Shown: piece after piece, positions 8,929 to 57,517 of the stretch
How the letters are laid out: every line of letters begins with the position of its first letter
Position numbering within the stretch: the first letter of the stretch is position 1
NCBI GenBank assembly: GCA_002363705.1
Contig: DEWQ01000011.1
Coordinates: forward strand, 154,168 to 218,167
DNA length: 64,000 nucleotides
Direction: 5' to 3'
Source: Bacillales bacterium UBA3206
GTDB lineage: Bacteria > Bacillota_I > Bacilli_A > Acholeplasmatales > Anaeroplasmataceae
Translations under genes and position numbers: made by a program
The notes under the pieces: model-generated
What the model was told of the DNA's origin: nothing
What the model saw: the letters and a program-made list of their open reading frames with translations, nothing else
Database searches by the model: none

Positions 8929-10014
8929 CTAATCAAGTACATCTACAGCTTCAACTAAAAATGACGGGTCAAAATGAGTATATACTCTTTCAGTAAGTGA
9001 CTGTGTATTTGCATGTCCTACTATCTTCTTTAGAATGGTTTCATTCATATTCTTTTCACTGCACATACTAATAAAGGTATGTCTTGTGTCATGAACTAAA
9101 TGTTTTGTTCCTAATAATTCATTAATTTGTGAAAAATAGTAATCTCTATAATATCTATATAGTAATGGATCATGATTTGTATTTTCAAATAATAATTCAT
9201 TATCATTTCTATTCATCCAACTCTCGAAATATGGATAAATCTTCTTACAAATAGGAACAACTCTAATACCAGCTGATGTCTTACTTGCTGTAACATTAAA
9301 ATATCTTTCTTTTAGGTTTACTTCACATTTCTTTAAATCCAATAATTCAGATATTCTAGTTCCAGTATATATAAGCATTAAAGTAATGCTTTTAACATCA
9401 GATTCAGGCATATCCCAAATCTTTTTAACGTCTTCTTTAGAAAATTTCTCTCTATCACGCTTATTTGGATTCTTATTTGAATATTTAGCTATATCTACTA
9501 ATTCAGCATAATTCTTATCCACATATTCATTTTTTAAAGCAAATTTATATAGCATATTAAGCAAGAATTTCATTTTACGGATAGTTGAATAGTTCTTTCC
9601 ACTATCAGCAATAATTCGCTCATAATCTCTTGTTTTAAGTGAAGCGAATACTTTATTATGAATTCCTACAAAGCCTTTAAAAGCGGCATTATAACCATTC
9701 GTAGTGGATTTTGATGTTGTAGGAAAAAAGTCTTTACTCCACTTATCAAATATATCTTTAAATTTATATTTGCATTCAGGTGTAACAACTACTTTAGTCT
9801 CATTAGGATTCTTTAGTAAATCACTATTATAAGACATAAGCATGTTAAATCCATCTTGGTAAGTTTTAGCATATCCGATGGTTTTTATAATTTGTTTTTT
9901 CTTTCCATTTACTTCTTCAAATCCTATAGTCTTTCTAACTATGTATGGATTTCTTCTCGTTCCTTTAAGTTTGTAGACTTGTCCTACTCCTTGTGGTAAT
10001 TTCATTTTTCTCAT
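8929..10014 (-). CDS. Tyrosine site-specific integrase (second copy, distinct sequence)
   Basis: The C-terminus reads 'HDTRHTFISM...IVGHANTQSLTERVYTHF'. Confidence 0.85.
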   Translation of the reverse strand: MRKMKLPQGVGQVYKLKGTRRNPYIVRKTIGFEEVNGKKKQIIKTIGYAKTYQDGFNMLMSYNSDLLKNPNETKVVVTPECKYKFKDIFDKWSKDFFPTTSKSTTNGYNAAFKGFVGIHNKVFASLKTRDYERIIADSGKNYSTIRKMKFLLNMLYKFALKNEYVDKNYAELVDIAKYSNKNPNKRDREKFSKEDVKKIWDMPESDVKSITLMLIYTGTRISELLDLKKCEVNLKERYFNVTASKTSAGIRVVPICKKIYPYFESWMNRNDNELLFENTNHDPLLYRYYRDYYFSQINELLGTKHLVHDTRHTFISMCSEKNMNETILKKIVGHANTQSLTERVYTHFDPSFLVEAVDVLD

Positions 10015-10066
10015 AATTTTATCTCCTTGTTACCTAATTTTTTTATAGTAATAACAAGTAGCATAA

Positions 10067-10095
10067 TTTGTTAGTTATTTGTTAGTTACGATATA
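10067..10095. repeat. 29-bp direct repeat, copy 2
   Basis: It is a perfect match to 8868..8896. Confidence 0.9.
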
Positions 10096-10224
10096 AAAAA
10101 TGCATAAGAATTACATTCTTTTATCAAAAACAAATTAAAGTAACAAATTTACCAAAAAACCTTGAAAAATGGCTTAACAAAGCCAAAAAAAAGCCACGCA
10201 TTCGAGAATATGCGTAGCTCTTTT

Positions 10225-10276
10225 ATCTTTTTCTTTGCAATTATAATAATCAAACAATTAACGCTTAGAGAATTGT
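10225..10276. repeat. ~52-bp imperfect direct repeat, copy A (atctttttctttgcaattataataatcaaacaatt...cttagagaattgt)
   Basis: It matches 11824..11879 with a few substitutions and one short indel. Confidence 0.8.
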
Positions 10277-10423
10277 TTTAAATAACCAAAAAACTAGAAA
10301 AAACCGCATCACTAAAGGATTTTTACTACTTTTAGATGATTTATTTTAAATATTAAATTCGGGCACTCATCGGGAACCACCCGTTACTAAGTGTTATCAA
10401 ACAACACTATTTTAACTTAATTC

Positions 10424-10666
10424 TCATTCACGTGCAATCTTTAATTTTTTTCTAGAAATCAATTCTAACATTTCCTCTTTATTGTTATGGATTCTATCGT
10501 CAATCACCAATTCTAGTAGAAGCTTCAATGCATCTCTGATTTCTTTTCCAGCAAGTCCTAATCTAATCAAATCATATCCATCTACTGATAAATCAGACAA
10601 GGCTGAAGTCGAATTAAATGATGCTGGTATTAAATTATATAACTCAAAATAATTGAATTTTACCAT
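10424..10666 (-). CDS. Hypothetical 80-aa protein (weak resemblance to the C-terminal tail of CCA-adding tRNA nucleotidyltransferases)
   Basis: Its start overlaps the Fic stop by 7 nt. 'GYDLIRLGLAGKEIRDALKLLLELVIDD' recalls the C-terminal segment of Bacillus CCA enzymes, but the similarity was judged by eye only. Confidence 0.3.
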   Translation of the reverse strand: MVKFNYFELYNLIPASFNSTSALSDLSVDGYDLIRLGLAGKEIRDALKLLLELVIDDRIHNNKEEMLELISRKKLKIARE

Positions 10667-11715
10667 TCTTTAATTAAATCATATAAATAATTATTCTTAT
10701 ATATTTTTTCTTTTCCAACTTGCTCTGAAGTTAAAACACCCAATTCTTCTAATTCTGAAAGATATTTTCCTGCTGTATTTCTAGAAACGGATAATTTCTC
10801 TCTTAAATATTCATTTTTAGTATAAAAATCATAAAATAAATATTCTATTAATTCTTCAGAATAAATCTTTGGTTTATTTTGCTTCACTAGATTTTTGCAA
10901 TTATCCATCGCTTTTCTAAATTTATCAATAAATCCTAAAGTGAATATGGATGTTTGTTCAACTCCATTAATCATATATAACAAATAATTTTTTATATATT
11001 TATTATCAATCCTCATATCATAAAGGCATTTATAATATTCTTCCCTATTTGAATTAATATATTTTGACAAATATAAAATAGGAAGAGATAACTTTTGTTG
11101 TAAAACTAAATATAATACATTTAAGATTCTTCCTGTTCTACCATTTCCATCATGAAATGGATGAATTGATTCAAATTGATAATGAATCATAGACATCTTG
11201 ATAAGCGGATCTGTATTTTCAAGTTCATCATAATTAATGTATTTTTCTAGGTTTGATAAATAATCTCTTATTTCATTCTCACTTTGAGGTGGATTATGAA
11301 GTATTTCTTTGGTTTTAGTATTCATAATAACTGTACCTGGTATCTTTCTAATTCCACCAACATTAGGTTCAATGATATGATGAATTTCTTCAATTATCTT
11401 TGAACTAATAAATCCGTTATCCTTAACTTGAGAGAATCCATATAAAATAGCTTGACGATAATTAACAACCTCTTTAGATGCAGAATTTTGATTTTTAAGG
11501 GTTATCTCCTTAAACACCTCATCAAAAGTTGTTACTATATTTTCAATCTCACTTGATTCTTTTGCTTCACCTAATATAACAGCATTTAGTATAATATTAG
11601 GATTTGGCATTGTATTAATGATACCATTCAATTCTCCTAATTTACTATTTGCTTTATTTAATGCCTTAAGAATATCAATATCATCATAATTATATTCAAA
11701 TGGTAATTTGTGCAT
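10660..11715 (-). CDS. Fic-family protein (class II, auto-inhibited AMPylase) with C-terminal wHTH
   Basis: The Fic motif is 'HPFHDGNGRTGR' and an N-terminal inhibitory motif 'SSEIEN' fits (S/T)xxxE(G/N). The track ORF extends to 12033, but the M at 11715 (MHKLPFEYNYDD) has RBS 'gaaggtga' and the upstream stretch is repeat and terminator DNA. Confidence 0.8.
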   Translation of the reverse strand: MHKLPFEYNYDDIDILKALNKANSKLGELNGIINTMPNPNIILNAVILGEAKESSEIENIVTTFDEVFKEITLKNQNSASKEVVNYRQAILYGFSQVKDNGFISSKIIEEIHHIIEPNVGGIRKIPGTVIMNTKTKEILHNPPQSENEIRDYLSNLEKYINYDELENTDPLIKMSMIHYQFESIHPFHDGNGRTGRILNVLYLVLQQKLSLPILYLSKYINSNREEYYKCLYDMRIDNKYIKNYLLYMINGVEQTSIFTLGFIDKFRKAMDNCKNLVKQNKPKIYSEELIEYLFYDFYTKNEYLREKLSVSRNTAGKYLSELEELGVLTSEQVGKEKIYKNNYLYDLIKEW

Positions 11716-11823
11716 ATCATCACCTTCTGCACAAATTTTATCATTTTTTGTGCACGTTGTCAATTCGTGCACAATATCAATTTGAAACAAAAATAAAAAG
11801 CAGGGTGAGAAGTCCTGCTTAAT

Positions 11824-11879
11824 ATCTTTTTCTTTGCAATTATAATAATCGAACAATTTACTAAGGCTTAGAGGCTTGT
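11824..11879. repeat. ~52-bp imperfect direct repeat, copy B
   Basis: It matches 10225..10276; together the two copies bracket the Fic module. Confidence 0.8.
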
Positions 11880-11955
11880 AGTGCACAACTAACACCTTAG
11901 TTAAGAAGTTTTTATTTGTGTTAAAGGTACTGCTATATTTTACGATTTTTTTCTT

Positions 11956-11993
11956 AAAAAAAACTAAAAGCAGGGTTGTGGATTCCCCTGCTT
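11956..11993 (-). terminator. rho-independent terminator of rplM-rpsI operon
   Basis: An aagcaggg/ccctgctt stem is followed on the minus strand by a U-run, about 50 nt after the rpsI stop. Confidence 0.6.
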
Positions 11994-12041
11994 CTAATAT
12001 AATCCATAAATATGAACTTTTTGTCAAAATCAAACGTAATA

Positions 12042-12999: not shown

Positions 13000-13036
13000 T
13001 TTTATATAAAAAGAGGTGGCTATTCGCCATCCTCTT
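13000..13036 (-). terminator. rho-independent terminator of the sipW-AAA operon
   Basis: The hairpin aagaggtggc-tattc-gccatcctctt is followed by a U-run on the minus strand and overlaps the stop codon. Confidence 0.5.
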
Positions 13037-13730
13037 CATTAGCTTTATTTTCTTCCTCTATTTCCTTTAATAATTCTTGACGCATATCATCAAGTAGCTT
13101 TTGTTTAAGCTCCTCACTTGATAGCTTTTCTGAAGAATTTTCTTTTATCTTTTTCTTATTCTTTACAAGATAAATATTAACACTTTCAGTCAACATTATT
13201 AATAGAAATACAAATATTAATAATCCATAGATTAAATTTTTGTTTGACGCAAGCTTTCCTATATTTAAGAAATTAAATGTTTTAACATATATTCCTATAA
13301 GCATATCCGCTGTGACTAATTCATCATCAACCAAGGTATTATTATCACCCTTAACTATAAATCCACTATCTGTTATTTCAACTATTCTATGAACAATATA
13401 TAGTCCTTTAGTTTCACCAGATTCAGATTTATATATGATAATATCTCCAACATCACATGAATCATATGATATTTTCTTAAATATTATAGAATCCCCAGCT
13501 TTTATAGTTGGTTCCATACTCTTAGTTGGTACATATGAGTATGAGTATCCAAAATAGCTTACAGGCTTTTCTTCTCTTACAGCAATTACATTACATACAA
13601 GCATATAAATGATAAGTAATACAATTAATCCTATAAGAGAGCCTACTCCAATTGTTAATCCCTTTTGCACCTTTGGAGGTAGCTTTGATTTTAACCTTTG
13701 TAGTAAGCCTTGCTTTTTAGTCTTCGTCAT
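13020..13730 (-). CDS. ER/archaeal-type signal peptidase I (SipW-like) with C-terminal TM and charged cytoplasmic tail
   Basis: It has 'KSMEPTIKAGD' (Ser box), 'VHRIV' (His box) and 'GDNN', with an N-terminal TM, a second TM and an acidic/Lys-rich tail. Its start overlaps the upstream gene by 14 nt. Confidence 0.75.
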   Translation of the reverse strand: MTKTKKQGLLQRLKSKLPPKVQKGLTIGVGSLIGLIVLLIIYMLVCNVIAVREEKPVSYFGYSYSYVPTKSMEPTIKAGDSIIFKKISYDSCDVGDIIIYKSESGETKGLYIVHRIVEITDSGFIVKGDNNTLVDDELVTADMLIGIYVKTFNFLNIGKLASNKNLIYGLLIFVFLLIMLTESVNIYLVKNKKKIKENSSEKLSSEELKQKLLDDMRQELLKEIEEENKANEEDGE

Positions 13731-16371
13731 TTTCCTTTGCCCTTGCAGCTAAAGCTTTAGCACGAATTGCTTCACGTCTACGACGTAATAGTTCACGTGG
13801 ATCAACCTTTTCACCTGTTGAAGGTGTGCTATCCATTGCAGGACGAGCTTGACTACGTTCTGCTAATGTTCTTTGCTTTAAAGCCTCACGTCTACGTCTT
13901 AGAACCTCTCTTGGGTCCTCTTCAGTAGCAGATGGGGCTGCAGCCTCTACAGGTGCAGTACCATTAGCCTGTGCTTGACGCTGTGCAAGTAATGCACGAC
14001 GACGAATAATATCCCTATTACGCTCAAACATTGCAGCAGATGCTCTTTGTGGTGCTACTGCTTCTGGTTTAGACTCCTCTTCGTCGTCCTCTGCAGAAAC
14101 AACATCCTTTGATTGCATCATACTCTCTTCAGCACGTTCTTTTTTACGTGCTTCAAATAATGCCTTATTATCAAGAGGCTTTTCTTCATCCTCATCCTCA
14201 TCAACAACTCTTGCTCCAGCCTTATCAGCTAATGCCTTTTGTCTTATAGCCTCACGTCTACGACGTAATAGCTCCTTAGGTGATAATGATTCCTCTTGAG
14301 CCTCTTCCTCTTCACCATCATCAGATGAGAAGTCATTTAATAATTGGTCTAGCTCATCATCAATTGCCTTAACCTCTGCATTCTCCTGCTCGTCTTCAGC
14401 TTCTGCCTCAGCCTCATCAGCCATAGCAGCCTTCATAGCCTCTTCCTTAGCACGGGCTGCAGCAGCCTTAGCCTTAATGATTTCACGTCTACGCCTAAGG
14501 ATTTCCTTAGCATCTAGATGAGCCTTAGAAGCTTCTAGCTCCTTCTCTTGCTCCTCTACCTTCTTAGCTTCAGCCTCAGCCTTAGCCTTAGCTTCTTCTC
14601 TTTCCTTAGCCTTTGCTTCACGAGCAGCCTTTCTTTCAGCCTTAGCCTTAGCCTGCTCAGCAAGAATACGTGCTCTACGCTCTTGAAGCTTAGCCTTTGT
14701 AGCCTCTTGAGCTGCCTTCTCCTTAGCACGGGCCTCATCACGCTCAGCCTTAAGCTTAGCACGCTCCTCCTTAGCCTTAGCTTCTAGCTCCTCTTGTCTA
14801 CGTCTAGCCTCTTCACGCTCAGCAGCACGTTTAGCAGCACGAGCTGCCTTCTCTTCTGCAAGCTTCTTAAGTCTTGCTTCACGAGCCTGTTGCTGACGAA
14901 TCTTCTCTTCAGTAGATTGAATCTCTGCTAGTGTATCCTCGTATTCTTTCTTTGTATTATTGTAATCTACTTCCTTAAGTCTAGTAATAGTATCTAAGAC
15001 ATCTGCTTTCTTCTTAGCACGCTCTAGCTTAACTGGAAGTGGAACCTCTTCAAATTCATCCTCAAATGGAACCTCAAATAGAGGTGGATAAATTGAGTTT
15101 ATTACTTCTTGCATTTCTCTAAACACAAGCTCTAGTGAATATTTCTTCTCCATTCCAGAGTTTACTTTATCCTCAAGAGATTGCTGGTAGAATTCCTGAG
15201 TCTTATTTAAGAAATACTCAGACATCTCAAATTTTTCGATATTTTGAGAATCTGGCTTAAATTTATACTCATCATCCATCTTACTTAGATTACGAGCATT
15301 ACGATATGTATGTGACTTATATAGGTCCTGATTCTCTAGGTCTCTAGAACCATTATAATATAGCATTGTACCTACTGAGTTAGCAAAAATCTTATCAATT
15401 GTTGATGCCATCTCATCAGTATATTTATTTTTCTTTTCACGTACATTTACATCGAATGCTAATTGGTTATATCTATCAAGGAAAACCCATGTATTATAAC
15501 AAATCTTGAATTCAGGATTTTTTGTAATAATGTTAGTCTTTTGAATTGGGGGTACTACCTCTTTATAATTCTTTAAGGCTTGCATTAGCTGAGAAGAACG
15601 AAGAGATTTAAATTTCTCTTGTACATCCTTTGCTTTTTCAAAGGTGTCACGAGCCATCTTAACCTCAGATTCCTGCTCAGATTCCATTTTAACTGATAAT
15701 TCAACCTTAACCTTAGTTTTATCCTCTAGCTTGAAATCATTAGTAATAACTGTACTACGTGTCTCATATGAATCTAGATTCTTCTTCATAATTTGAATAC
15801 GAAGTGATAAGAACTTACAAATACGGTTAATTAGAGTCTTAATGAAACGGTTCTCATAAATTCCTAGCTCATCCTCAGAGAATGTTGTTAATAGCTTTGA
15901 TGGAATAATATCCCCGTTTTCCTTAACCTGTTTAATAAATTGTGTATGTGAGGATAAGTGTCTTACGGTATCAGAATTAACCTTCTTAACCTTCTCCATA
16001 GGTACAACTTCTTCCTCATAACGAATTGCTTTCTTAGGATCCTTTAAAATTTTTGAGATACTCTTAAAGCAATCATTTAATACTGGTATAAATGATTTTT
16101 CAAAAATCTTAGTTTCACGAATAGTCTTTGAGTAAACTGTCTTCTTTCCACCTTGGATTTGCTTTAGTAAAGCAGCTCCCATAGCTGACTTAGTGACACT
16201 ACCCTTTAGGCTTTCCTCGAGAATGTGGTAGAACTCACTTACAGATGCATCATTCTTTTCTGCATCAGTTGGCTCTAAGACCTTTCCATCTGAGCTATCA
16301 CCATTCTCATTTAGTTTTTCATCGACAACGATAGATTGTTCAGTCTTTTGCTCTTCTTCCACATTGCTCAC
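13717..16371 (-). CDS. Large hypothetical protein: ~480-aa N-terminal globular region plus ~400-aa E/R/K/A-rich helical tail with 5 'LLRRRREAIRxKALA' repeats
   Basis: It has no TM or signal peptide. The tail is an ER/K-rich single-alpha-helix-like segment (AEEKAARAAKRAAEREEARRRQEELEAKAKEE...) with five periodic RRRRE motifs that recur at nucleotide level (cacgtctacgacgtaatag). It sits 28 nt downstream of the AAA gene. Confidence 0.55.
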   Translation of the reverse strand: MSNVEEEQKTEQSIVVDEKLNENGDSSDGKVLEPTDAEKNDASVSEFYHILEESLKGSVTKSAMGAALLKQIQGGKKTVYSKTIRETKIFEKSFIPVLNDCFKSISKILKDPKKAIRYEEEVVPMEKVKKVNSDTVRHLSSHTQFIKQVKENGDIIPSKLLTTFSEDELGIYENRFIKTLINRICKFLSLRIQIMKKNLDSYETRSTVITNDFKLEDKTKVKVELSVKMESEQESEVKMARDTFEKAKDVQEKFKSLRSSQLMQALKNYKEVVPPIQKTNIITKNPEFKICYNTWVFLDRYNQLAFDVNVREKKNKYTDEMASTIDKIFANSVGTMLYYNGSRDLENQDLYKSHTYRNARNLSKMDDEYKFKPDSQNIEKFEMSEYFLNKTQEFYQQSLEDKVNSGMEKKYSLELVFREMQEVINSIYPPLFEVPFEDEFEEVPLPVKLERAKKKADVLDTITRLKEVDYNNTKKEYEDTLAEIQSTEEKIRQQQAREARLKKLAEEKAARAAKRAAEREEARRRQEELEAKAKEERAKLKAERDEARAKEKAAQEATKAKLQERRARILAEQAKAKAERKAAREAKAKEREEAKAKAEAEAKKVEEQEKELEASKAHLDAKEILRRRREIIKAKAAAARAKEEAMKAAMADEAEAEAEDEQENAEVKAIDDELDQLLNDFSSDDGEEEEAQEESLSPKELLRRRREAIRQKALADKAGARVVDEDEDEEKPLDNKALFEARKKERAEESMMQSKDVVSAEDDEEESKPEAVAPQRASAAMFERNRDIIRRRALLAQRQAQANGTAPVEAAAPSATEEDPREVLRRRREALKQRTLAERSQARPAMDSTPSTGEKVDPRELLRRRREAIRAKALAARAKENDED

Positions 16372-16399: not shown

Positions 16400-17989
16400 T
16401 TAGCTTACCTTCTTTAGATCATTAATAAAATCTTGTGATACAGCAAATGCTCTCTTACCAAATAATTTATCTAGTAAGGCACTTAATTGATCTAGCTCAT
16501 TACGTAGGAATGAAAGGTTTAATGACTCAAACTTACGTAAAATCTTATTACATAGCATGTAATCTAGACCTTCAATTTCAGTAAATCCACATGCAATATA
16601 GCATGGAACGAATAATCTAATTTGCTTCATGATACGGTTTCCGAATGCAATCTTGAATTTTGCTTGGATGAATTCATCAAGCTTCATGAATGATTCCATA
16701 ACTCTTGCAGAAATTGTAATGTCTCTTTGTGCTGCCTTGAATAGCTCATCAATATATTCAAATGACATTTGAACATTTTCAGTATAAGGTGCATCAACTA
16801 GCTCAGCCTTATGGTTAATAACGATAGGTAGGGCACGGTCATAAACCTTATCTGTGATTGTAAATGTTGAGTCATCCTTATTGGCTGTTCCAATGAACCA
16901 AATATTTTGGTTAATTAATAGCTTACCATTAATAAATAGCTTAGGATCTGTTGGATCTGAACCAGAAACGATGTCAATTAACCATTGAGATGGATCTGGC
17001 ATTTCCATTACTGATAGGAACTCAGCAAAATAGTACTCAATACGGGCAAGGTTCATCTCATCTAGTACGATGAAGTTAGGCTTGTCTGAGTATCCAGCTT
17101 GGTATACACACTTTAAGAAATCTGTTTCATTAAATCTATGTGTGAACTCATTTAAGTATCCAAGTAACTCAGCACGGTCACGCCATGAAGGCTGTACTGA
17201 AATAATTGATGATGGCTTATTAAAGAACTTACCCATTGCATATGGTAGGGAAGTCTTTCCTGTTCCTGAAATACCTTCTAGGATAAGAACCTTAGAAGTT
17301 CCCATTCCTGCGATATAACGGGCAATAACTGGCTTTGCATAATATAGATGTAGCTGTGATGCAGCATATCCGATAAATCTATCGCATAGACCACTTAAAT
17401 CAAGCATATCATTTGATGTCATTATTGTGTATTCAGGATTTGATCTATAGAAAGCATCAACTTGAGTAAGCTTAATGAATCTTCCATTAAACTCCTCTTT
17501 CTCCTCTTCCTCAGCAGGTGCTAATTGAGGGTTGAATAAATCATCTGGATTAACCTCAGTTTCTCCACCTGAAATTTGGCTTACACGTAAAGCAAGAATT
17601 TTATTCTTCTCATCAACAAGTTCAACTACCTTCTTATTTAATAGCTGCACTTGATCAATAAGCTCATCCTTCTCAATTTCTCTACCTCTAAACTTATTAT
17701 ATCTCTTACATAGAATTACAATTAATGTAATTAGTAATACGATAAATGCAAGATTAATAAATAGAACTACAACATAAGCAATCCAGTCTAATGCATTCCA
17801 TTCACTATTATGAATAGAAGCATCAGCTAAATCCTTAAAATAATTCTTAATGTCTGTTCCAAACCATTTTCCAAAGGCCTTTCCAATACTTGAAAAGAAT
17901 GTACCAAAGTTTTTAAAGAATGCCTTTAAAAAATTATAATAATATCTAGCAAATTCACTCATATCTGCTCTCTCCTTCCAAGGACTCAA
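16400..17989 (-). CDS. Membrane-anchored McrB/AAA_5-like NTPase
   Basis: An N-terminal TM helix (WIAYVVVLFINLAFIVLLITLIVILC) is followed by a coiled coil. The NTPase motifs are Walker A 'GISGTGKTS', Walker B 'IVLDEMNLARIEYYFAEF' and 'IGTANKDDSTF', which resembles the McrB 'MNTADRS' motif. Its start overlaps the upstream sipW-like stop by 8 nt. Confidence 0.6.
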   Translation of the reverse strand: MSPWKERADMSEFARYYYNFLKAFFKNFGTFFSSIGKAFGKWFGTDIKNYFKDLADASIHNSEWNALDWIAYVVVLFINLAFIVLLITLIVILCKRYNKFRGREIEKDELIDQVQLLNKKVVELVDEKNKILALRVSQISGGETEVNPDDLFNPQLAPAEEEEKEEFNGRFIKLTQVDAFYRSNPEYTIMTSNDMLDLSGLCDRFIGYAASQLHLYYAKPVIARYIAGMGTSKVLILEGISGTGKTSLPYAMGKFFNKPSSIISVQPSWRDRAELLGYLNEFTHRFNETDFLKCVYQAGYSDKPNFIVLDEMNLARIEYYFAEFLSVMEMPDPSQWLIDIVSGSDPTDPKLFINGKLLINQNIWFIGTANKDDSTFTITDKVYDRALPIVINHKAELVDAPYTENVQMSFEYIDELFKAAQRDITISARVMESFMKLDEFIQAKFKIAFGNRIMKQIRLFVPCYIACGFTEIEGLDYMLCNKILRKFESLNLSFLRNELDQLSALLDKLFGKRAFAVSQDFINDLKKVS

Positions 17990-17995
17990 TCATTT

Positions 17996-18955
17996 TTACT
18001 TCTCTTCGTCGCCCTTTTCACTACTATCTGTGATATCTTTTTCATCATTTGGTTTTGTTTCTGCATTTTCCTTTGCAGCAGCTGCTTGCTCTGCTCTTAA
18101 TTGAGCTAGAAGCTCAGCCTTCATTTTTTCTCTTTCCTCATCAAGAGATTTCTTCATTTCTTCCTTCTCAGCCTCATTAGCCTCTTGAAGCTTAGCTGTT
18201 CTTATTTCCATTACATTCTTAATTACCATAAACATTTCAAATACTAAGAATAAACCTGTGAAAATAATAACTAGCACAAATCCCTTTTTAGGATTAGATA
18301 GCCAATTTACAAAATTACCAGCACCATCCCAGTGTGAAATGTATTTTGCTTTTACTTGATCTGGATTTACAATTTGTACAACCTCTTGAGTATATCTCAT
18401 TAAAGTTTTCTCTTCTTCTGTACAATTGTCGTAATAATACATACCATCTTTATATGATTTGTAGATATCTCCTTGTAATACAAAGCATGAAATACTATTA
18501 TCAGATGGATTATAAATAATATCTACAATTCTATGGGTATTAAGGAATGGATCCTTAGCACTTTCTGTATCCCAAAAAGTGATAATATCTCCAACTTTAA
18601 GCTTTGATGTTTTAAAATTAGTAGATGCCCATACCAAATCTCCCTTTTCAAATGTAGGTGTCATAGAGTCTGATAATACAATTTCATACCCTAGACCAAA
18701 AACATTTTTTACCTTACCTTCTTTAGATCCGGCAATTTGTGAAATTGAGAATAATAAAAGCAAGAATATAAAAAAGTAGAATATAGAATTAACCACAATA
18801 TTTGTTATATATAGCGCTTTTTTTCTTTTATCTATAGAATTAATTTCCATTTCTTCATCAATATTATCCTTAGTAGTAAGAGATTCCTCTTGTTCAATCA
18901 AATCATTATTTTCATTGTTAGTATCTTCATTCAACATATCTCTTGCTCCTTTCAC
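17996..18955 (-). CDS. ER/archaeal-type signal peptidase I (SipW-like, second paralog) with acidic N-terminal extension and C-terminal TM plus coiled-coil tail
   Basis: It has 'LSDSMTPTFEKGD' and the 'THRIV' His box; the C-terminal tail is 'EKEEMKKSLDEEREKMKAELLAQLRAEQ'. Confidence 0.7.
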   Translation of the reverse strand: MKGARDMLNEDTNNENNDLIEQEESLTTKDNIDEEMEINSIDKRKKALYITNIVVNSIFYFFIFLLLLFSISQIAGSKEGKVKNVFGLGYEIVLSDSMTPTFEKGDLVWASTNFKTSKLKVGDIITFWDTESAKDPFLNTHRIVDIIYNPSDNSISCFVLQGDIYKSYKDGMYYYDNCTEEEKTLMRYTQEVVQIVNPDQVKAKYISHWDGAGNFVNWLSNPKKGFVLVIIFTGLFLVFEMFMVIKNVMEIRTAKLQEANEAEKEEMKKSLDEEREKMKAELLAQLRAEQAAAAKENAETKPNDEKDITDSSEKGDEEK

Positions 18956-19096
18956 ATAAATATTCCTTATTTTATTTTATCATATTTAATTAGAAAATTA
19001 AATAGTATTTATTTGTAATAGCAAAAATAAGTCTATTATAAAAACAAAAATGTCTAGGTATTATTGAAATGATAAAATGTTAGTAGACACAAAAAA

Positions 19097-19543
19097 GTGT
19101 TTATTAACATTTTTTCTTTTATAATAAATAATAAGAATATACTTCTTCCTAGGAAGAATCACGGAGGTGAAAATATGGGAAGACCTAAAGGTGGAAAAAA
19201 CAAATCATGGACAGTGAATGAAAAATATGAAGTATTAGAGCCTATCATTAAAGGAGAAATATCTCAAAAAGATAGAGCACGAGAACTAGATTTGGCTTAT
19301 GGAATGATGACTAGGTGGCTTACAGCTTATAAAAAAGGTGGCATTGAGGCATTAAAGAATAAGCGTAAGCCTGGTAATCCTTTAGCAAAATATTCTAGTC
19401 GTAAAAAATTATCGTATACTGAGCAATTAGAGTATGAGAATATGAAATTAAGAATCGAGAATGAACGATTAAAAAAAGGATACACATCAAAGGAGGCGGA
19501 TCAAGCAAAACAAAAGAAATTAAACAAAAAGAATTCGCAATAA
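19097..19543 (+). CDS. IS3-family transposase OrfA (HTH)
   Basis: It opens 'MGRPKGGKNKSWTVNEKYEVLEPI...' and has a leucine-zipper-like C-terminus. Confidence 0.8.
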   Translation: MFINIFSFIINNKNILLPRKNHGGENMGRPKGGKNKSWTVNEKYEVLEPIIKGEISQKDRARELDLAYGMMTRWLTAYKKGGIEALKNKRKPGNPLAKYSSRKKLSYTEQLEYENMKLRIENERLKKGYTSKEADQAKQKKLNKKNSQ

Positions 19544-19590
19544 TAGAGTTATTAAGTAAAGATTTTAATATTGATTCATTATGCAAAGCA

Positions 19591-20409
19591 ATGGGATTAT
19601 CACGTTCTGGTTATTATAAATGGTTAAAAAGAAAAGGCACTTTAAATAGGTACGAAAATAGTAGAGTACTATTAAGTAATATGATAAAAGAATATCATAA
19701 TAATCATAAATCATGGGGATATAGACATATAGCAGCTGAAATAAGAAAAGACACTGGTTGGATATTTTCTGATAATCTTTGTCATAAGTGTTGTAAAGCC
19801 TTAAAAATACATTCTAAAGCAAGAAAACTTCCATATAGCAAGTCTGGTGAAGAAAGTATTAAATATCCAAATATGATTTGGAAAGATTGGAATACTACTA
19901 GACCATTTGAAAAGATAGTTACGGATACAACTATATTCTATAATCATAATAAACAATATGATTTAACTTTATATATTGATGTTTTCAACAATGAAATAGT
20001 GGCATACGATTTAGCAGATGGTAAGCATGGAGCGAATACGGCAAATCATATTAGAGCACTAAAAAAGTTACTAAAAGTCAAAATAAAAAGAGGGTATAAA
20101 GACCTTGAAACGATTGTCCATTCTGATCAAGGTATCATATACTCCTCAATGGTATTCGCCAATACCCATAAAGATTATAACATTAAACGTTCTATGAGTC
20201 GAGCAGGAACTCCAACTGATAATCCAATTATTGAAGCTTTAAATGGTTGGATTAAGGAGGAAATGGCTGTCGATTTTGACTTGTATAAAACTAATAATGT
20301 TCATAAAGCAGTCAGAGATTATATCAAATATTATAACAATGAAAGATTAGCATATGCATTACAATACAAAAGCCCTGTCCAGTATAGAACAGAGCTCTCA
20401 TTTAATTAA
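19591..20409 (+). CDS. IS3-family transposase OrfB (DDE integrase core), -1 frame relative to OrfA
   Basis: The DDE residues are in 'VTDTT', 'HSDQG' and 'IEALNGW'. The frame offset is consistent with programmed -1 frameshifting in 19500-19590. Confidence 0.8.
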   Translation: MGLSRSGYYKWLKRKGTLNRYENSRVLLSNMIKEYHNNHKSWGYRHIAAEIRKDTGWIFSDNLCHKCCKALKIHSKARKLPYSKSGEESIKYPNMIWKDWNTTRPFEKIVTDTTIFYNHNKQYDLTLYIDVFNNEIVAYDLADGKHGANTANHIRALKKLLKVKIKRGYKDLETIVHSDQGIIYSSMVFANTHKDYNIKRSMSRAGTPTDNPIIEALNGWIKEEMAVDFDLYKTNNVHKAVRDYIKYYNNERLAYALQYKSPVQYRTELSFN

Positions 20410-20479
20410 ATATTTTTTTAATGTCTACAAACTATTGACTAGTTCATATTATCCTAGACATTTTATAGATTACAAGATA

Positions 20480-21490
20480 TTATTCATTATCAGCAGATGT
20501 GAATGAATAATCAATTGAGAATGCTTGTCCGAATATAGCATCGAAACAGTCAGCATCGAATCCTTCTAACCAATATGTGAATGTTAATCTATAGATTTGG
20601 TTAGCTGAATCTGTTGCGAACATTTCAACTCCTGTATATCCAGCAGTTGTTGGAGTTAAACCTGCATAATTTGCATTAGCCGCAACATACTTATCTCCAG
20701 TAGCATCAGAGAAATTAGTTCCTAATACTGCCTCGATGTATGAGTTTGCAGCATTAGTTCCAGCTAGAGATTGTCCAAAATTAAATATACTTGTTCCTGT
20801 TCTATCAGTATTAGGTGCAATAGATGAACTATCAACATATCCAGCTAATGTTTGAAGTCTTGTATCATCATTTCCAGCTGCACCTTCAAATGCTGTCTTA
20901 GCAGCTGTAGGTGTTTGTGCATCAGCTACTACAGATGTAGAAACAGCCTTAGATACATCAACTACTGAACGTAAAGCATTAAGAGATGAAACCTTAACCT
21001 TATCTCCTGCAGCAAATGACATTGATGAAGGAGTTGTAGCAGTGAAATCCTTTTGAATTGTGTATGCAGAAACTGTCGTAGTTTGTGATGTAGAATCCTC
21101 TGATATTTGTACCTTCTTATTGTTAGCACTAACCTTTAAGAATAGCTCAAATTGAAGAGCTGTTGTTGATGTAGTGTCAATAGTTACATCAGATAGAGTT
21201 GATCCATCTAATGATTGCCACTTATCATCATTAGCAAGAGTTGATCCAGCAGCAACATATGTTAATGCTCCTAACTCGTTTTCTGACTTATCAATTTCTA
21301 CTGAAGATCCCCAGTGATAGCAATCTGTAGAAATTAAGATAGAGTCTGTTGTTGATTGTACACCAACTGTAATGTTTGCAGTTACTGTTGCATTAGTTGT
21401 AAACCATGCAAATGTTGTTGTTCCTAGAGCTACAACAGCGAATGCCATAGATAGTGAACTTAATAATAATTTTCTCGAAATTTTATTCAT
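20480..21490 (-). CDS. TasA/camelysin-like secreted protein (SipW-type signal peptide), paralog 1
   Basis: The N-terminus is 'MNKISRKLLLSSLSMAFAVVALGTTTFAWFT' and the C-terminus is 'YRLTFTYWLEGFDADCFD' (compare TasA '...QFSFEATQWNG'). The protein is Thr/Ser/Ala-rich. Confidence 0.55.
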   Translation of the reverse strand: MNKISRKLLLSSLSMAFAVVALGTTTFAWFTTNATVTANITVGVQSTTDSILISTDCYHWGSSVEIDKSENELGALTYVAAGSTLANDDKWQSLDGSTLSDVTIDTTSTTALQFELFLKVSANNKKVQISEDSTSQTTTVSAYTIQKDFTATTPSSMSFAAGDKVKVSSLNALRSVVDVSKAVSTSVVADAQTPTAAKTAFEGAAGNDDTRLQTLAGYVDSSSIAPNTDRTGTSIFNFGQSLAGTNAANSYIEAVLGTNFSDATGDKYVAANANYAGLTPTTAGYTGVEMFATDSANQIYRLTFTYWLEGFDADCFDAIFGQAFSIDYSFTSADNE

Positions 21491-21617
21491 ATATACCTTT
21501 CTCCTTTTCGTATTTTATTATTATATTTTTCCTTGTTTTTTCATTTTAATGACAACAAATATTCCTGTGTCCTTAACTTAATTATATCACTTAAGTGATT
21601 TTATATCAAGTATTTTG

Positions 21618-23126
21618 TTATTCCCACACGCTAACCAAATACCATTTCTCTCCTTTTGCACTAGGAGTTACTATTGTGTTTGTAAAGTCGAATAATGTTG
21701 GAACATCAGATGTTTTTCCTTCATTATCAAGATAATTGCCATTTTCATCAGACCATGCCCATCCCTTAAACGCGTGTGAATTGTTTGTGATATAGGCTGG
21801 TGAATCGTCTGATATCAGCATATTAAGAATTTGATGTCTAACAATCCTTTTTGTGATGTAGTTTGTATTTGGATTTTTTACCAAATAAGTAAGTTCCAAT
21901 GGATCTTCCTCATAGTGCTTAGTAGTGAATTGCATATCAAACACTAATTGCTGATCTAAAACAAAATCAATACAATCCGCATCCCAACCCTCAATCCATA
22001 ACGTAAGTGTCATAGAGGCTTTCCCATTGTCTCCATACTCATTTGATGCATTTAAGGATAAAATCTTAGCTGCTTCCACTGTGTCAAACCCCTTAAATGT
22101 TGAAGGGATATCATTGTAAGACATAATCTCACTTTCTTCTATTATACCATCAGCGCCTACACCAACACCATCATCCGCCTTCTCTGCTTCATCTTTGCGC
22201 ACCTGATTATAGTAAGAAACCCCTGCATTTTTTGTGTAGTCATAGGCAGCAGCTGCAGCTTGAGCAGCGGCTTCTGCTCCTGTAGCATTATCACGAACAA
22301 TATAGTCAGTACCAGCAGCTAGCTTTGTAGCATACGAACCATTTCCTTTATTCAATTCATAGAATCTAGGATTGCTATCACTTGATGTGGTTACAGCAAA
22401 ACGAGCTGCATCTGAAATATAGGCTCTATAATTTTGTTTAAAGCTTTCAGTTGCATCCGTTTTATCAACATCATCATATGTTGCAGTTCCATTTTGATGA
22501 TTATAGTTAATCATTTTTCCATTTGTCAAATCATAAGATGAAAAATCATGTCTAATATCTTCTGGGAAGCCATAATTGCTTTGCCCAACAGTTCTAATTT
22601 GGGTTTTAGGAATATATGTTCCATCATCATAAGTGAACGTTCCTGTAGAAAAATACACATCCTGTGGAGATTTAGTTTCAGACTTAAAATAAATTTTAAA
22701 CCTTACATATGCCTTACTAGACAATTTAAATATTGTCGCACGATTTTGAAAGTTCTCTCCATCTAAGGTTGTAAGTGGTTTTAAGGTTAGTTTAAAATAC
22801 TCAGCTACACTATCATCAGTAACCTCTATTACTTCACCCTTTTCAGTTAACCACTCATCTTTATTCTCGCCAGCAGATCTTAGGTCCCATCCCTTCATAT
22901 AAGCAACAATTGAAGCGGCAACATCAGTGCTTGTTAGTTGTCTCTTGTAATTTTCTCCGTCAACAGAAATCATCAAATCATCACCTGATGCAGCACCTAA
23001 TTCCATATCACTAAACCAAGCATTTGTATTTAACTTGAACCACGCAAATGTGACAGTTCCTGCAACTACAAACATTAGTACTAGAGTTAGTAAACTAATA
23101 TAAAGTTTTCTTGATAAATTAATCAT
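21618..23126 (-). CDS. TasA/camelysin-like secreted protein, paralog 2
   Basis: It has 'MINLSRKLYISLLTLVLMFVVAGTVTFAWFKLN' and C-terminal 'MTLTLWIEGWDADCIDF'. Confidence 0.55.
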   Translation of the reverse strand: MINLSRKLYISLLTLVLMFVVAGTVTFAWFKLNTNAWFSDMELGAASGDDLMISVDGENYKRQLTSTDVAASIVAYMKGWDLRSAGENKDEWLTEKGEVIEVTDDSVAEYFKLTLKPLTTLDGENFQNRATIFKLSSKAYVRFKIYFKSETKSPQDVYFSTGTFTYDDGTYIPKTQIRTVGQSNYGFPEDIRHDFSSYDLTNGKMINYNHQNGTATYDDVDKTDATESFKQNYRAYISDAARFAVTTSSDSNPRFYELNKGNGSYATKLAAGTDYIVRDNATGAEAAAQAAAAAYDYTKNAGVSYYNQVRKDEAEKADDGVGVGADGIIEESEIMSYNDIPSTFKGFDTVEAAKILSLNASNEYGDNGKASMTLTLWIEGWDADCIDFVLDQQLVFDMQFTTKHYEEDPLELTYLVKNPNTNYITKRIVRHQILNMLISDDSPAYITNNSHAFKGWAWSDENGNYLDNEGKTSDVPTLFDFTNTIVTPSAKGEKWYLVSVWE

Positions 23127-23243
23127 TTGTTTATCAACCCCTTTAGGTTAGTTATAAAACATTTACCGACATTTTATATAAATAAAATCGTAAATCTCTC
23201 ATAATTATATAATATTTTAATATTATGTCAATAAATATTTTTT

Positions 23244-24086
23244 CTATACTAAGCTCTCATGGTATGCTTCGAATGACATACCAATCTTAAGCTTTCCTTC
23301 AATAATTCCCATTCTTTCGTTATTATTTCCATAATAGGCAACACAATCTGGATCATTTCCATCAAGCCACATAATTATAGAAATCTTATAATCCTCACCA
23401 GGATTAAAGTCTAGGAATGCTGTATGATAAATAATATTCTCATCATCCTTTGATGAATAATCAGCATTCCAATCTACTGTTCGATCAGTATGGTAACTTG
23501 AACCAGCAATAGCATTTTTATAATACTCTTCATTTTCCTCAGTAGATTCTGCCTTCTTATAGATAGTACCTGTTGTATCCTTTGTTGTATAAACAAGCTG
23601 TCCATCCTCTTCAGTTCCATGTGAAATAAATACCCAGAATCTTGCAGCCGAAGCTACATCACGAGTATTTTCTGTGATTTTGAATGTAGTTTCTACATCA
23701 CATTGCTTTCCACCTGTGTTAGCTAAATAGAATGTATATCCAATATAATTTCCAGCACTCGATTTGTATCCTCCATCATTATTATAAACGAAGGATTCAA
23801 TGATTTCAGGTTCTGAAATAGGCTGTGCATCAGAATATTCAGGAGCATTAAGGCTTCTTTCACCTTCGCCATCTACTGATTCCTTAAGTACTATTCCCAT
23901 ACCACTTAATTCATCATCAATATTAATTGTAAATCCTCCTGTACTCAAACCATAGTATGTTACAAGACCGATAGTTGTAGCAAGTAGTAAGAATAATACA
24001 ATTAATGTAGCTATTAACTTTTTTCTTCTAAACAAGCTGACCATACGGTCCTTGGCAAGCTTTTCTGATAAATTATCCTTTGCCAT
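23244..24086 (-). CDS. TasA/TapA-like membrane-anchored or secreted protein, paralog 3
   Basis: It has an N-terminal TM/signal and C-terminal 'KISIIMWLDGNDPDCVAY', the same motif as paralogs 1 and 2. Confidence 0.45.
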   Translation of the reverse strand: MAKDNLSEKLAKDRMVSLFRRKKLIATLIVLFLLLATTIGLVTYYGLSTGGFTINIDDELSGMGIVLKESVDGEGERSLNAPEYSDAQPISEPEIIESFVYNNDGGYKSSAGNYIGYTFYLANTGGKQCDVETTFKITENTRDVASAARFWVFISHGTEEDGQLVYTTKDTTGTIYKKAESTEENEEYYKNAIAGSSYHTDRTVDWNADYSSKDDENIIYHTAFLDFNPGEDYKISIIMWLDGNDPDCVAYYGNNNERMGIIEGKLKIGMSFEAYHESLV

Positions 24087-24284: not shown

Positions 24285-26090
24285 TTACTCCTCTTCATCC
24301 TCTTCTTCATCAGATTCAGAGTCATCTTCCTCTTCATCAGCATCCTCTTGTGCTACCTTTTTCTTTGGCTCCTCTTGTGCTTCAGTAGCATTAGCCTCAG
24401 GCTCTACTTGGCTCTCCTCTGCAGGAGCTTCCTCAGTAACAGTGGACGCTTGCTCAGAGCTTTCAGTAGTTGCTTCTTGGCTATCATTTGCTTCTACAGC
24501 ATTCTGCTCTTCAGCGACTGGAGCTTCTACATTAACCTCAGCCGCAAGATTTTCATCATTATTTTCTTCTGCAGGAGCTTGCTCAGCCTCCTTAGCAGGA
24601 TCAAATGTATGCTCGTCCCACTTACGAAGTCTAATGAAATCAGGAAGCTCAGATTCAGAAATTGGCTTTGAATAATAGTAACCTTGACCTAGAGTTACTC
24701 CAAGTCCCTTTACATATTCAGCCTGATCCTTAGTCTCAATTCCTTCAGATACAACAACACGATGTGCAACATTTGCTGTTTCAATAAGCATCTTAGCAAA
24801 CTTCTCCTTAATTGACTTAGTCTCTTCCTTCTCAGCTGCAAGCTTTTCTGCATCTGATGTTGTAGGTCTAGGATTATTTGAATCTGCCTCAACCTCATCA
24901 AGGAAGAAATTACGAGAAATCTTAATCATATCAATAGGCTCTTTACTAATCTTTGTGATTGTAGAGTAGTCTAGATCAAATCCATCAACTGCAATTGTAA
25001 ATCCTGCATCACGTAGCTTTAATAGGTTTTGCTTAACGTTATCCATCTTCTCAAACATTGCATATCCTGAAATCTCAAGTACAATTGAAGAAGCTGCAAC
25101 TGATGCCTTCTTAGCAACAAGAACTAGATCATCAGCTAGTGATTCATATGTTAATTGCTTTGTAGATAAGTTAAGAGTTAAATGGAAATCATCACCAACA
25201 AGTGGTTGAACCTCCTTAAACTTAGAGCATAATAGCTCAAGTCCCCATTTACCTACCCAATAAATATCTCCACTCTTTTCCATGATAGACATGAACTTAG
25301 CTGGTGGTAATACGCCTTGCTCTGGGTGGTTCCAACGCATTAGAGCCTCAAAACCATAAACATTATCAGTATTAAGGTTAATGATTGGTTGATAATATAG
25401 ACAGAATTCCTTGTTAAGGATAGCCTTCTTGATTTCTAAGAAGAACTTGTAGTTCTCTGACTCATCAGTAGCAAGAGTTCTATAATACATTGTGTATTTA
25501 TTTCCACCCTCACGCTTAGAAATATATGTTGAAAGCTCTAGATTCTTTACAAGCTCTTCTGTAGTTCTTCCACAAGAAGGATACATACAAATACCTGCAG
25601 ATGCAGTAAGAGAAATAGAATCTCTTGTAGATACATAAAGCTTTCCTCTTACATCAGCAAGTAGCTGATCAGTTATTTTACATACCTGCTCATATGTTAA
25701 ATTATCCTTGATGAAAATCATAAATTCATCATTACTATAATTTGAAATTACTGTTCTATAAGGGAATCTTTTAACAAAGCGTTGTGCAATTTCTGTTAAG
25801 AATTCCTGACATTGCTCACGTCCGAATATATCATTCATTGATGTGAAATTATCAATATCAATATAGATTAGAGTAAATTCTCCAAATCTTCCAACCTTCT
25901 TAATATAATTAGAAATAGCTCTATTCATTTCAGCCTTAGTAATAGTCTGCTCTGTTAGATTATCGCTTTCCTCATGGAATTTCTTATAATTGTATTTAAT
26001 TAGGAAGAAAAATAATACTCCTAATAAAATTACTACTAGTACTGCAATTAATGTTACCATTAATGCATTACCTCCTGAAGTTAATAACAT
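24285..26090 (-). CDS. Membrane protein with degenerate GGDEF (SNDEF) and partially degenerate EAL domains; acidic C-terminal tail
   Basis: It has 'EALMRW', 'DGFDLDYS' in place of DDFGTGYSS, 'EGIET', and 'YSNDEF' where GGDEF would be. Confidence 0.7.
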   Translation of the reverse strand: MLLTSGGNALMVTLIAVLVVILLGVLFFFLIKYNYKKFHEESDNLTEQTITKAEMNRAISNYIKKVGRFGEFTLIYIDIDNFTSMNDIFGREQCQEFLTEIAQRFVKRFPYRTVISNYSNDEFMIFIKDNLTYEQVCKITDQLLADVRGKLYVSTRDSISLTASAGICMYPSCGRTTEELVKNLELSTYISKREGGNKYTMYYRTLATDESENYKFFLEIKKAILNKEFCLYYQPIINLNTDNVYGFEALMRWNHPEQGVLPPAKFMSIMEKSGDIYWVGKWGLELLCSKFKEVQPLVGDDFHLTLNLSTKQLTYESLADDLVLVAKKASVAASSIVLEISGYAMFEKMDNVKQNLLKLRDAGFTIAVDGFDLDYSTITKISKEPIDMIKISRNFFLDEVEADSNNPRPTTSDAEKLAAEKEETKSIKEKFAKMLIETANVAHRVVVSEGIETKDQAEYVKGLGVTLGQGYYYSKPISESELPDFIRLRKWDEHTFDPAKEAEQAPAEENNDENLAAEVNVEAPVAEEQNAVEANDSQEATTESSEQASTVTEEAPAEESQVEPEANATEAQEEPKKKVAQEDADEEEDDSESDEEEDEEE

Positions 26091-57456: not shown

Positions 57457-57517
57457 AACCTTTTCTTCCTCCTACCTTTATGATTTCTATAAACGAATAA
57501 TAGTTTATGAGTAAAAA

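Follow-up and report, generated by a model that had tools for sequence, protein, structure and literature searches.

The 64,000-nucleotide stretch of Bacillales bacterium UBA3206 considered here (Acholeplasmatales, Anaeroplasmataceae; contig DEWQ01000011.1, positions 154,168 to 218,167) is referred to throughout as the window. It encodes a McrC-like protein with a long, charged C-terminal tail, in a cassette together with a McrB-like AAA+ GTPase and two SipW-type signal peptidases (Table 1). The tail is predicted to begin with a helix that resembles a single alpha-helix (SAH) and continues into an array of short, conserved, arginine-rich motifs, and a collinear module is found on diguanylate cyclases. 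The SAH-like helix, the conserved multivalent motif array and the module common to diguanylate cyclases have not been described before.

Table 1. Positions in the window of the McrC-like gene, the elements of its tail and the surrounding genes. Copy identities are mean pairwise values among nine orthologues whose N-domains are 70-84% identical; aa, amino acids; AF2, AlphaFold2.
Feature	Position	Strand	Residues (aa)	Sequence	Basis or remark
McrC-like (DUF2357) gene	13717..16371	minus			884-aa open reading frame; charged tail
N-terminal globular domain	15052..16371	minus	1-440		McrC N-terminal-like helical bundle
SAH-like net-basic A/E/K/R helix	14530..14901	minus	491-614		AF2; charge and heptad statistics
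Motif copy 1	14449..14511	minus	621-641	AKEILRRRREIIKAKAAAARA	35.5 bits; identity 0.86
Acidic amphipathic motif	14329..14376	minus	666-681	EVKAIDDELDQLLNDF	hydrophobic moment 0.57
Motif copy 2	14218..14280	minus	698-718	PKELLRRRREAIRQKALADKA	44.6 bits; identity 0.78
Short helix	14113..14169	minus	735-753	ALFEARKKERAEESMMQSK	AF2
Motif copy 3, degenerate	13978..14040	minus	778-798	SAAMFERNRDIIRRRALLAQR	25.0 bits; identity 0.56
Motif copy 4	13852..13914	minus	820-840	PREVLRRRREALKQRTLAERS	30.9 bits; identity 0.69
Motif copy 5, near C-terminus	13738..13800	minus	858-878	PRELLRRRREAIRAKALAARA	40.6 bits; identity 0.66
Partner gene, membrane-anchored McrB-like AAA+ GTPase	16400..17989	minus			profile; PADLOC
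Upstream SipW-type signal peptidase	17996..18955	minus			NCBIfam sigpep_I_arch / SipW; conserved position
Downstream SipW-type signal peptidase	13020..13730	minus			NCBIfam sigpep_I_arch, 2.5e-22
Three secreted or membrane-anchored protein genes	20480..24086	minus			336, 502 and 280 aa; sequence
GGDEF-EAL membrane protein	24285..26090	minus			Pfam GGDEF and EAL

The McrC-like protein and its tail

The McrC-like reading frame is a real gene because gene callers give exactly the same 884-aa protein on 19 public metagenome contigs. Its sole Pfam match is DUF2357, the N-terminal domain of McrC (aa 81-213, E 3.7e-11), which is matched in 13 of 16 members of the McrC-like family, and none of the 16 matches PD-(D/E)xK or any other nuclease family at E up to 1. 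Past the N-terminal domain the protein consists of helix and disordered tail. When the family profile was searched against the PDB it returned compositional ER/K matches only and no McrC.

The first-pass annotation had read the C-terminal half of the protein as a stable single alpha-helix of about 400 aa, made almost entirely of Ala, Glu, Arg and Lys. These four residues account for 64% of aa 480-884 (A 21.5%, E 19%, R 13%, K 10.6%), and their dominance is confined to aa ~500-645, where they reach 84% (A 29%, E 22%, K 18.5%, R 14%); in aa 646-884 they make up 54%, accompanied by 9% Asp as well as Pro, Ser and Gly, and acidic and basic blocks alternate. AF2, run on aa 481-884 with 10 orthologues (mean predicted local distance difference test score, pLDDT, 78.6), gives an unbroken helix over aa 482-614 (tail residues 2-134, pLDDT ~88-94), whose start possibly lies as early as aa 445, and which is separated by a six-residue break from a second helix at aa 621-682.

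The stretch aa 491-645 is free of Pro and Gly and contains 10% hydrophobic residues. Its hydrophobic periodicity at 3.5 residues has a z of -1.0, compared with 7.9 for tropomyosin and 5.7 for GCN4 as controls, and 56-aa windows between aa 509 and 606 give heptad z values of -0.9 to 0.8; the only local heptad signal in the protein is found around aa 621-690 (z 4.3-5.2). Opposite charges are paired at i/i+3 and i/i+4 with a density of 0.19, where shuffles average 0.076 (z 3.1), and this density resembles the myosin-10 SAH control (0.21) and is far below that of a classical ER/K control (0.67). The net charge is +15 over aa 491-645 and +10 over aa 491-620, and of the 47 orthologues in which the proximal helix could be measured, 46 have a net basic one. 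By structure prediction and coiled-coil statistics, the comparison that had been suggested for this region, aa 491-645 lack heptad periodicity and are not predicted to form a canonical coiled coil. The SAH reading is thus predicted to hold for ~130 residues (about 20 nm) and not for 400, the distal 240 aa being short helices and disordered linkers. In the Anaeroplasmataceae clade the proximal helix appears to be SAH-like rather than a coiled coil, which has not been described before. Like the ER/K SAHs of myosin VI/X and caldesmon it is a long charged helix with no hydrophobic seam and with i/i+4 pairs of opposite charge, and like the KER of CAF-1 it is net basic (PMC10335832). Unlike known ER/K SAHs it is unusually rich in Ala (29%), comes from a bacterium, extends from a McrC-like domain and leads into a motif array, and its charge pairs are sparser than those of the classical control.

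The distal tail contains five motif copies that start at aa 625, 702, 782, 824 and 862. These had been described as five near-identical, periodic motifs; four copies do share the pattern (I/L/V)LRRRRE(A/I)(I/L)(R/K)xKA, but the third is degenerate (FERNRDIIRRRALLA), and the start-to-start gaps of 77, 80, 42 and 38 aa are uneven. A hidden Markov model (HMM) of the motif scores the five sites at 25-45 bits, while the rest of the six-frame translation of the 64-kb window does not exceed 6.5 bits. Most copies begin with D-P-(K/R)-E, giving the consensus DP(K/R)ELLRRRREAIRxKALA, and this start recalls a helix-capping box. The motif helices have a net charge of +3 to +5, a hydrophobic moment of 0.16-0.35 and a HeliQuest-type discriminant of 1.2-2.0. 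No PDB sequence was matched by the motif profile at E up to 10.

Copy 1 opens the 62-aa helix at aa 621-682 in the AF2 model, and this helix also holds the acidic amphipathic IDDELDQLLNDF, whose residues I670, D671 and L677 are invariant among orthologues. Copy 2 is modelled as a short helix at aa 698-719 (pLDDT ~90), copy 3 at aa 776-802, copy 4 at aa 820-842 and copy 5 at aa 858-882, and the linkers that join the distal helices are acidic and disordered (pLDDT <50). The initial picture of motifs spaced along one rigid helix is therefore abandoned, as four of the five copies are predicted to be separate short helices on flexible acidic linkers. The additional short helix at aa 735-753 is possibly a decayed extra copy of the motif, matched by order along the protein alone; in some orthologues the motif HMM finds a weak stretch between copies 2 and 3 (-2.5 to 3.6 bits), which in L012 reads DARTKLRRRREALESQ.

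The motif is present in orthologues, and its copies hold the same positions in the nine. Among these nine the motif islands have mean pairwise identities of 0.56-0.86, close to the 0.78 of the globular domain, whereas the linkers reach 0.12-0.36 only.

Nucleotide-level repeats at four sites had been taken as a sign of recent internal duplication or of selection for the motif. A 19-mer, CACGTCTACGACGTAATAG, does occur exactly at 13773 and 14253, yet it has no third copy within 3 mismatches, and the sites near 13887 and 14484 have in common only CACGTCTACG. Where two copies share an amino acid they share the codon in 53 of 100 cases, whereas codon usage in this gene predicts 50.4, and a recent duplication is rejected on this ground as the origin of the copies in the window; the positional conservation of the copies among orthologues points the same way. 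The nucleotide similarity between copies therefore reflects selection on the amino acids together with a CGT/AGA codon bias. The duplication behind the copies appears to be old, with synonymous codons randomised.

Copy number does vary among relatives. Copy 5 is missing from P0005, L011 has five strong copies and L012 has five and a weak sixth. Inside the orthologous tail of L013 (L013:10040-10373) a 120-nt unit occurs as 2.8 tandem repeats that are 97% identical. This recent duplication of a 40-aa unit, made up of an acidic linker and a motif helix, LLAERRAAIAAKA, shows how such an array grows.

The module in other proteins and other clades

The motif HMM was searched exhaustively over 1.84 billion representative proteins and returned four entries only, namely the cluster of the window protein itself, P0124 and two unassigned fragments of 134 and 49 aa. 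A phmmer search of 5.8 billion proteins with the distal tail by itself (aa 690-884) returned a single fragment, an outcome probably due to composition filters. P0124 is a TPR-GGDEF diguanylate cyclase of 760 aa (GGDEF E 1.8e-32). The elements of its tail are collinear with those of the window protein and run from an ER/K helix through DNELDQLLNSF, an acidic linker, LDPKEILRRRREAI and a poly-Asp stretch to VDPKELLRQRREAIRAKAMAA. DNELDQLLNSF corresponds to the acidic amphipathic motif at aa 666-681 of the window protein. P0124 and the 94% orthologue L014 are encoded in one metagenome-assembled genome (MAG), P0124 at an unrelated asnA-apbA locus. The carriers in the TPR-GGDEF family (P0124-P0135; L087:9514-11796, L088) belong to the Anaeroplasmataceae clade of the window and have two LLRRRRE motifs. 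All orthologues of at least 65% identity keep the module, and those at 43-45% (P0136-P0138) end directly after GGDEF and have no tail.

The second kind of carrier is a GGDEF-EAL protein, whose gene is syntenic with the cassette in many Acholeplasmatales species. In the window this protein has an acidic disordered tail of ~130 aa with the terminus DSESDEEEDEEE, and such a tail is present in the clade of the window. In L011 the GGDEF-EAL gene (L011:3-1610, plus strand) lies just upstream of the cassette, and the acidic tail of its product ends in VVDAKEMLRRRREAIRAKAA, with one motif at 37 bits. Outside the McrC-like protein every identified carrier is thus an enzyme of cyclic di-GMP (c-di-GMP) metabolism, two short fragments aside. 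By these comparisons the tail module is portable and under selection in two protein families.

Across the McrC-like family tails differ greatly in composition and are between 23 and ~480 aa long, and a proximal charged helix is common. The orthologues of the Acholeplasmataceae have 22-31% hydrophobic residues in this part and local heptad z values up to 8, and are coiled-coil-like. The LLRRRRE motif is confined to the clade with at least 66% N-domain identity. Other clades of the Anaeroplasmataceae have different distal motifs, among them DLSDEELEALMxxNG(L/M)F (2-6 copies, often C-terminal), EDDEFLAALDAIPE (3-6 copies), VYVDExGNPIE and DDDVIIRYSEDxxVEN (2 copies); tails with these other motifs are exemplified by L021, L027, L048, L032, L033, L036 and L016. 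Given this variety of distal motifs, the general design is a helical spacer followed by a clade-specific array of short linear motifs. The sister-clade arrays are strongly acidic (net -60 to -98). An acidic tail ending in NGLF(D) bears a loose likeness to the C-terminal peptide of the ribosomal P-stalk. The DLSDEEL motif was sought in the neighbouring genes of the loci and gave no convincing match.

Two further proteins of the window recall parts of these tails. A 488-aa protein with no Pfam domain (60465-61928, minus strand) contains acidic repeats, KKLDNLSDKDLENLDLDDLDLDDLSDDMQE (2 copies), LDELTDEELVNMDFDDIDF and DISDEELEAYMAQSGYY, which resemble the LSDEEL-type motifs of the sister-clade tails. 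An SPFH/Band_7 (flotillin-like) protein (55948-57471, minus strand) has a long A/E/K-rich helical region and lacks the motif.

The cassette and its neighbours

The gene paired with the McrC-like gene had been taken to encode an NTPase and does so, the product being of McrB type. It has a Walker A (GISGTGKTS), a Walker B (VLDEMNLA) and an invariant GTANKDDST with the NxD signature; public gene calls give it 520 aa with a start at M10. A single AAA sequence found no match in the PDB, and a family profile of 14 orthologues was needed, which matched E. coli McrB only (E 4e-4). In this alignment GTANKDDST falls on GLMNTADRS of McrB, with NKDD on NTAD. A second D follows the NKD, in agreement with the description of CoCoPALM (PMC11090510). 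PADLOC assigns the protein to the candidate PDC-M26A (2.8e-36). The N-terminus consists of an amphipathic segment, a transmembrane (TM) helix (WIAYVVVLFINLAFIVLLITLIVILC) and a short coiled coil, and the conserved helical segment of ~35 aa after the TM helix reads EKDELLEEVSxLNQKVVELIDEKNKILA. Pfam DivIC/FtsB does not match this N-terminus even at E up to 10.

The start of the downstream sipW overlaps the stop codon of the McrC-like gene by 14 nt. In each SipW paralogue a charged helical C-tail follows the second TM helix (17996-18200 upstream, 13020-13160 downstream); it reads EKEEMKKSLDEEREKMKAELLAQLRAEQ in the upstream and SEELKQKLLDDMRQELLKEIEEE in the downstream protein and is cytoplasmic by the usual SipW topology. 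Both C-tails are conserved order-wide, whatever the type of motif in the McrC-like tail.

In the 80 species loci from Anaeroplasma, Acholeplasma, Mariniplasma and Peloplasma, the order SipW-AAA-DUF2357-SipW is kept at every locus with sufficient flanking sequence. The AAA protein is 52-100% identical across all loci, and in distant species it is 52-65% identical compared with 31-40% for the N-domain of the McrC-like protein. The cassette is vertically inherited and housekeeping-like, order-wide in the Acholeplasmatales. A mobile defence island, as known for McrBC, was considered and is ruled out by the strict synteny across ~80 species and the lack of a nuclease. Five contigs with the cassette genes (L008, L010, L054, L065 and L084) are deposited as Parabacteroides, Elusimicrobiaceae or Bacteroidales MAGs; their genes are 70-90% identical to those of Anaeroplasmataceae and the contigs are probably mis-binned.

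CoCoPALM was named by Bell et al. in a single paragraph that deferred its analysis to a later paper, and was described as NxD GTPases fused to an FtsB-like TM helix and coiled coil, with coiled coils on both the McrB and the McrC homologues and an association with signal peptidases (PMC11090510). A literature search found no later CoCoPALM paper, and the supplementary files of PMC11090510 hold nothing on CoCoPALM. The match of the cassette to CoCoPALM, a nuclease-less McrBC derivative, is strongly supported by the sequence comparisons: the two share an NxD McrB-like GTPase with an N-terminal TM helix and a putative coiled coil, a nuclease-less DUF2357 McrC homologue with a long helical extension, and genes of the signal peptidase family. 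Beyond the published description are the SAH-like ER/K helix, the short-motif arrays in the McrC tail, the module on GGDEF enzymes, the two flanking SipW paralogues with conserved cytoplasmic tails and the conservation across the Acholeplasmatales. With the McrBC systems of E. coli and Thermococcus (PDB 6hz4, 6ut5) the cassette has in common an AAA+ GTPase and a DUF2357 activator of detectable sequence and fold similarity. Unlike canonical McrBC it has no PD-(D/E)xK nuclease, its signature is NxD instead of NxxD, and its McrB-like protein has a TM anchor and not an N-domain that binds modified DNA.

Upstream of the cassette lie three genes for secreted or membrane-anchored proteins, homologues of which are often found just upstream of the cassette in other loci. 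The first two have an N-terminal TM helix with (T/V)TFAWF, and all three end in W(L/I)(E/D)G(W/F/N)D(A/P)DC; none of the three was matched by Pfam or NCBIfam. They are putative substrates of the peptidases and TasA/pilin-like, a label given from the N-terminal TM helix, the FAWF motif and the gene position only. Beyond them are two GGDEF-EAL genes. An IS3-family element (orfA and an rve-domain orfB; 19097-20409, plus strand) separates the upstream sipW from the 336-aa gene, and in L004, whose SipW is 99% and secreted protein 93% identical, there is only a 138-nt gap at this site. This insertion is strain-specific, and with it the secreted-protein genes may no longer be coupled to the other genes of the operon. 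In L001-L003 and L006 the AAA protein, the McrC-like protein, the downstream SipW and rplM/rpsI are 100% identical to the window, but identity falls to 69% for the upstream SipW and to 42-47% for the secreted protein beside it (window 17996-21490). This mosaic implies a recombination breakpoint between the upstream sipW and the AAA gene, with the surface-exposed part diversified. Directly downstream of rpsI a tyrosine recombinase (Phage_integrase) and a Fic/SoFic-like adenylyltransferase (8929-12033, minus strand) possibly form an integrated element.

A proposed spacer and docking array on the McrC-like protein

It is proposed that the tail of this CoCoPALM-type McrC-like protein serves as a spacer and a putative multivalent docking array through which c-di-GMP enzymes are linked with the machine, a reading to which we assign a probability of about 0.5. 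By homology with McrBC, the N-domain would plug into the membrane-bound GTPase hexamer, and the long basic helix, as the spacer, would hold the distal array out in the cytoplasm. Docking would fall to the motif helices, which would be conditionally folded and would bind either a shared partner or each other. Basic LLRRRRE helices might for example pair with acidic ELDQLLNxF helices or with acidic tails such as that of the GGDEF-EAL protein, and cyclases and phosphodiesterases that bear the module would thereby be brought to a secretion or pilus-assembly machine. Short amphipathic helices on acidic disordered linkers are used in factor recruitment by the P-stalk and L7/L12 and in the C-terminal peptide of FtsZ, which we take to be a functional analogy with no sequence homology.

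Several observations weigh against this proposal. Carriers are few beyond the McrC-like protein: a single family of cyclases and a single lineage of GGDEF-EAL proteins. In some orthologues the tail is as short as 23-60 aa, so that the array is not essential to the core machine. Furthermore, the SipW tails and the AAA N-terminus are conserved across clades with differing motifs and show no co-variation with them. As they are conserved regardless of the motif, these regions are unlikely to be the clade-specific partner, and the SipW cytoplasmic tails were rejected as a candidate for that role.

A rival explanation, which we regard as unlikely though worth weighing, is that the tail is a polyanion binder like the KER of CAF-1, in which the SAH and the Arg-rich helices bind DNA or RNA and so tether the nucleoid or transcripts to the membrane machine, or measure nucleic-acid length. 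The KER is a 128-angstrom DNA-binding SAH (PMC10335832), and the KER of CAF-1 p150 is the best PDB match of the family profile (8iqg, E 3.9e-5), although this match is compositional. The basic charge of the proximal helix in nearly all orthologues would suit nucleic-acid binding, as would the low hydrophobic moment and the Arg clusters of the motif helices, which recall the arginine-rich motifs of the Rev and N type, and the parent McrBC family acts on nucleic acids. The motif itself, however, has conserved hydrophobic positions (LL..., A/I-I, AL-A) and a D-P-x-E start, as is typical of a protein-docking helix. The GGDEF enzymes with the same module have no obvious need for nucleic acid, and the strongly acidic arrays of the sister clades could not bind it.

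A canonical coiled coil, in which the long helix dimerises or pairs with the coiled coil of the McrB-like protein and replaces nuclease-mediated dimerisation of McrC, seems rather improbable for the window protein. It draws on the report of coiled coils fused to McrB and McrC homologues (PMC11090510), on the coiled-coil-like orthologues of the Acholeplasmataceae and on the local heptad signal around aa 621-690. The hydrophobic content and heptad statistics of aa 491-645 and of the windows within it speak against such a pairing, and the McrB-like coiled coil of ~35 aa is far shorter than a helix of 130-170 aa.

Binding to the membrane surface is improbable. Here basic helices on anionic lipid would hold the tail and the module-sharing proteins at the membrane of wall-less cells, as the charge and discriminant of the motif helices would allow; the machine is membrane-anchored, and the soluble TPR-GGDEF cyclase would gain membrane localisation. 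The moment of these helices nevertheless stays below the 0.38-0.61 of the MinD, FtsA and SpoVM controls and their mean hydrophobicity is ~0, aromatic residues are found only in copy 3, and an anionic membrane would repel the strongly acidic linkers.

PilZ domains carry R-R-x-x-x-R as their N-terminal motif, a string that most motif copies contain too. The tail could on this ground be an array of c-di-GMP receptors whose RRxxxR core binds the nucleotide, so that the GTPase machine senses local c-di-GMP, and both the restriction of the identified non-McrC-like carriers to c-di-GMP enzymes and the synteny of the GGDEF-EAL gene would fit. We consider this very doubtful: there is no PilZ Pfam match, no beta-barrel or other beta structure in the tail and no D/NxSxxG, only RRxxxR-like strings within helices, RxxxR is trivial in any Arg-rich helix, and copies 1 and 4 carry K at the last position. 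A neutral low-complexity expansion, that is a drifting charged spacer with no specific binding, accords with the variable length and composition of the tail and with the acidic disordered tails common in the lineage, but is extremely unlikely and already disfavoured, as conservation in the motif islands is close to that of the globular domain and the linkers have diverged, the module is maintained in a second protein family, and synonymous sites between copies are randomised while the amino acids are kept.

The proposal of a spacer and docking array can be extended to a more far-reaching model, which is put forward only tentatively. The tail would be a portable address tag made of an ER/K spacer, acidic ELDQLLNxF and basic LLRRRRE helices, and through multivalent pairing of basic and acidic helices cyclases and phosphodiesterases would be assembled onto a McrBC-derived, SipW-associated, GTP-driven secretion or pilus machine in wall-less bacteria, making a local hub of c-di-GMP signalling, with sister clades using other motif codes.

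CoCoPALM is a large branch of McrBC that has been named but not characterised, and that appears to have left defence for a role in the cell envelope. The locus described here offers defined peptides of 20 aa, a helix of 130 aa and named partner candidates with which to ask how the motor of a restriction enzyme came to serve secretion or pilus assembly, and by what means c-di-GMP signalling could be localised at such a machine. The tail is in addition a clean bacterial example of a predicted ER/K-type helix.

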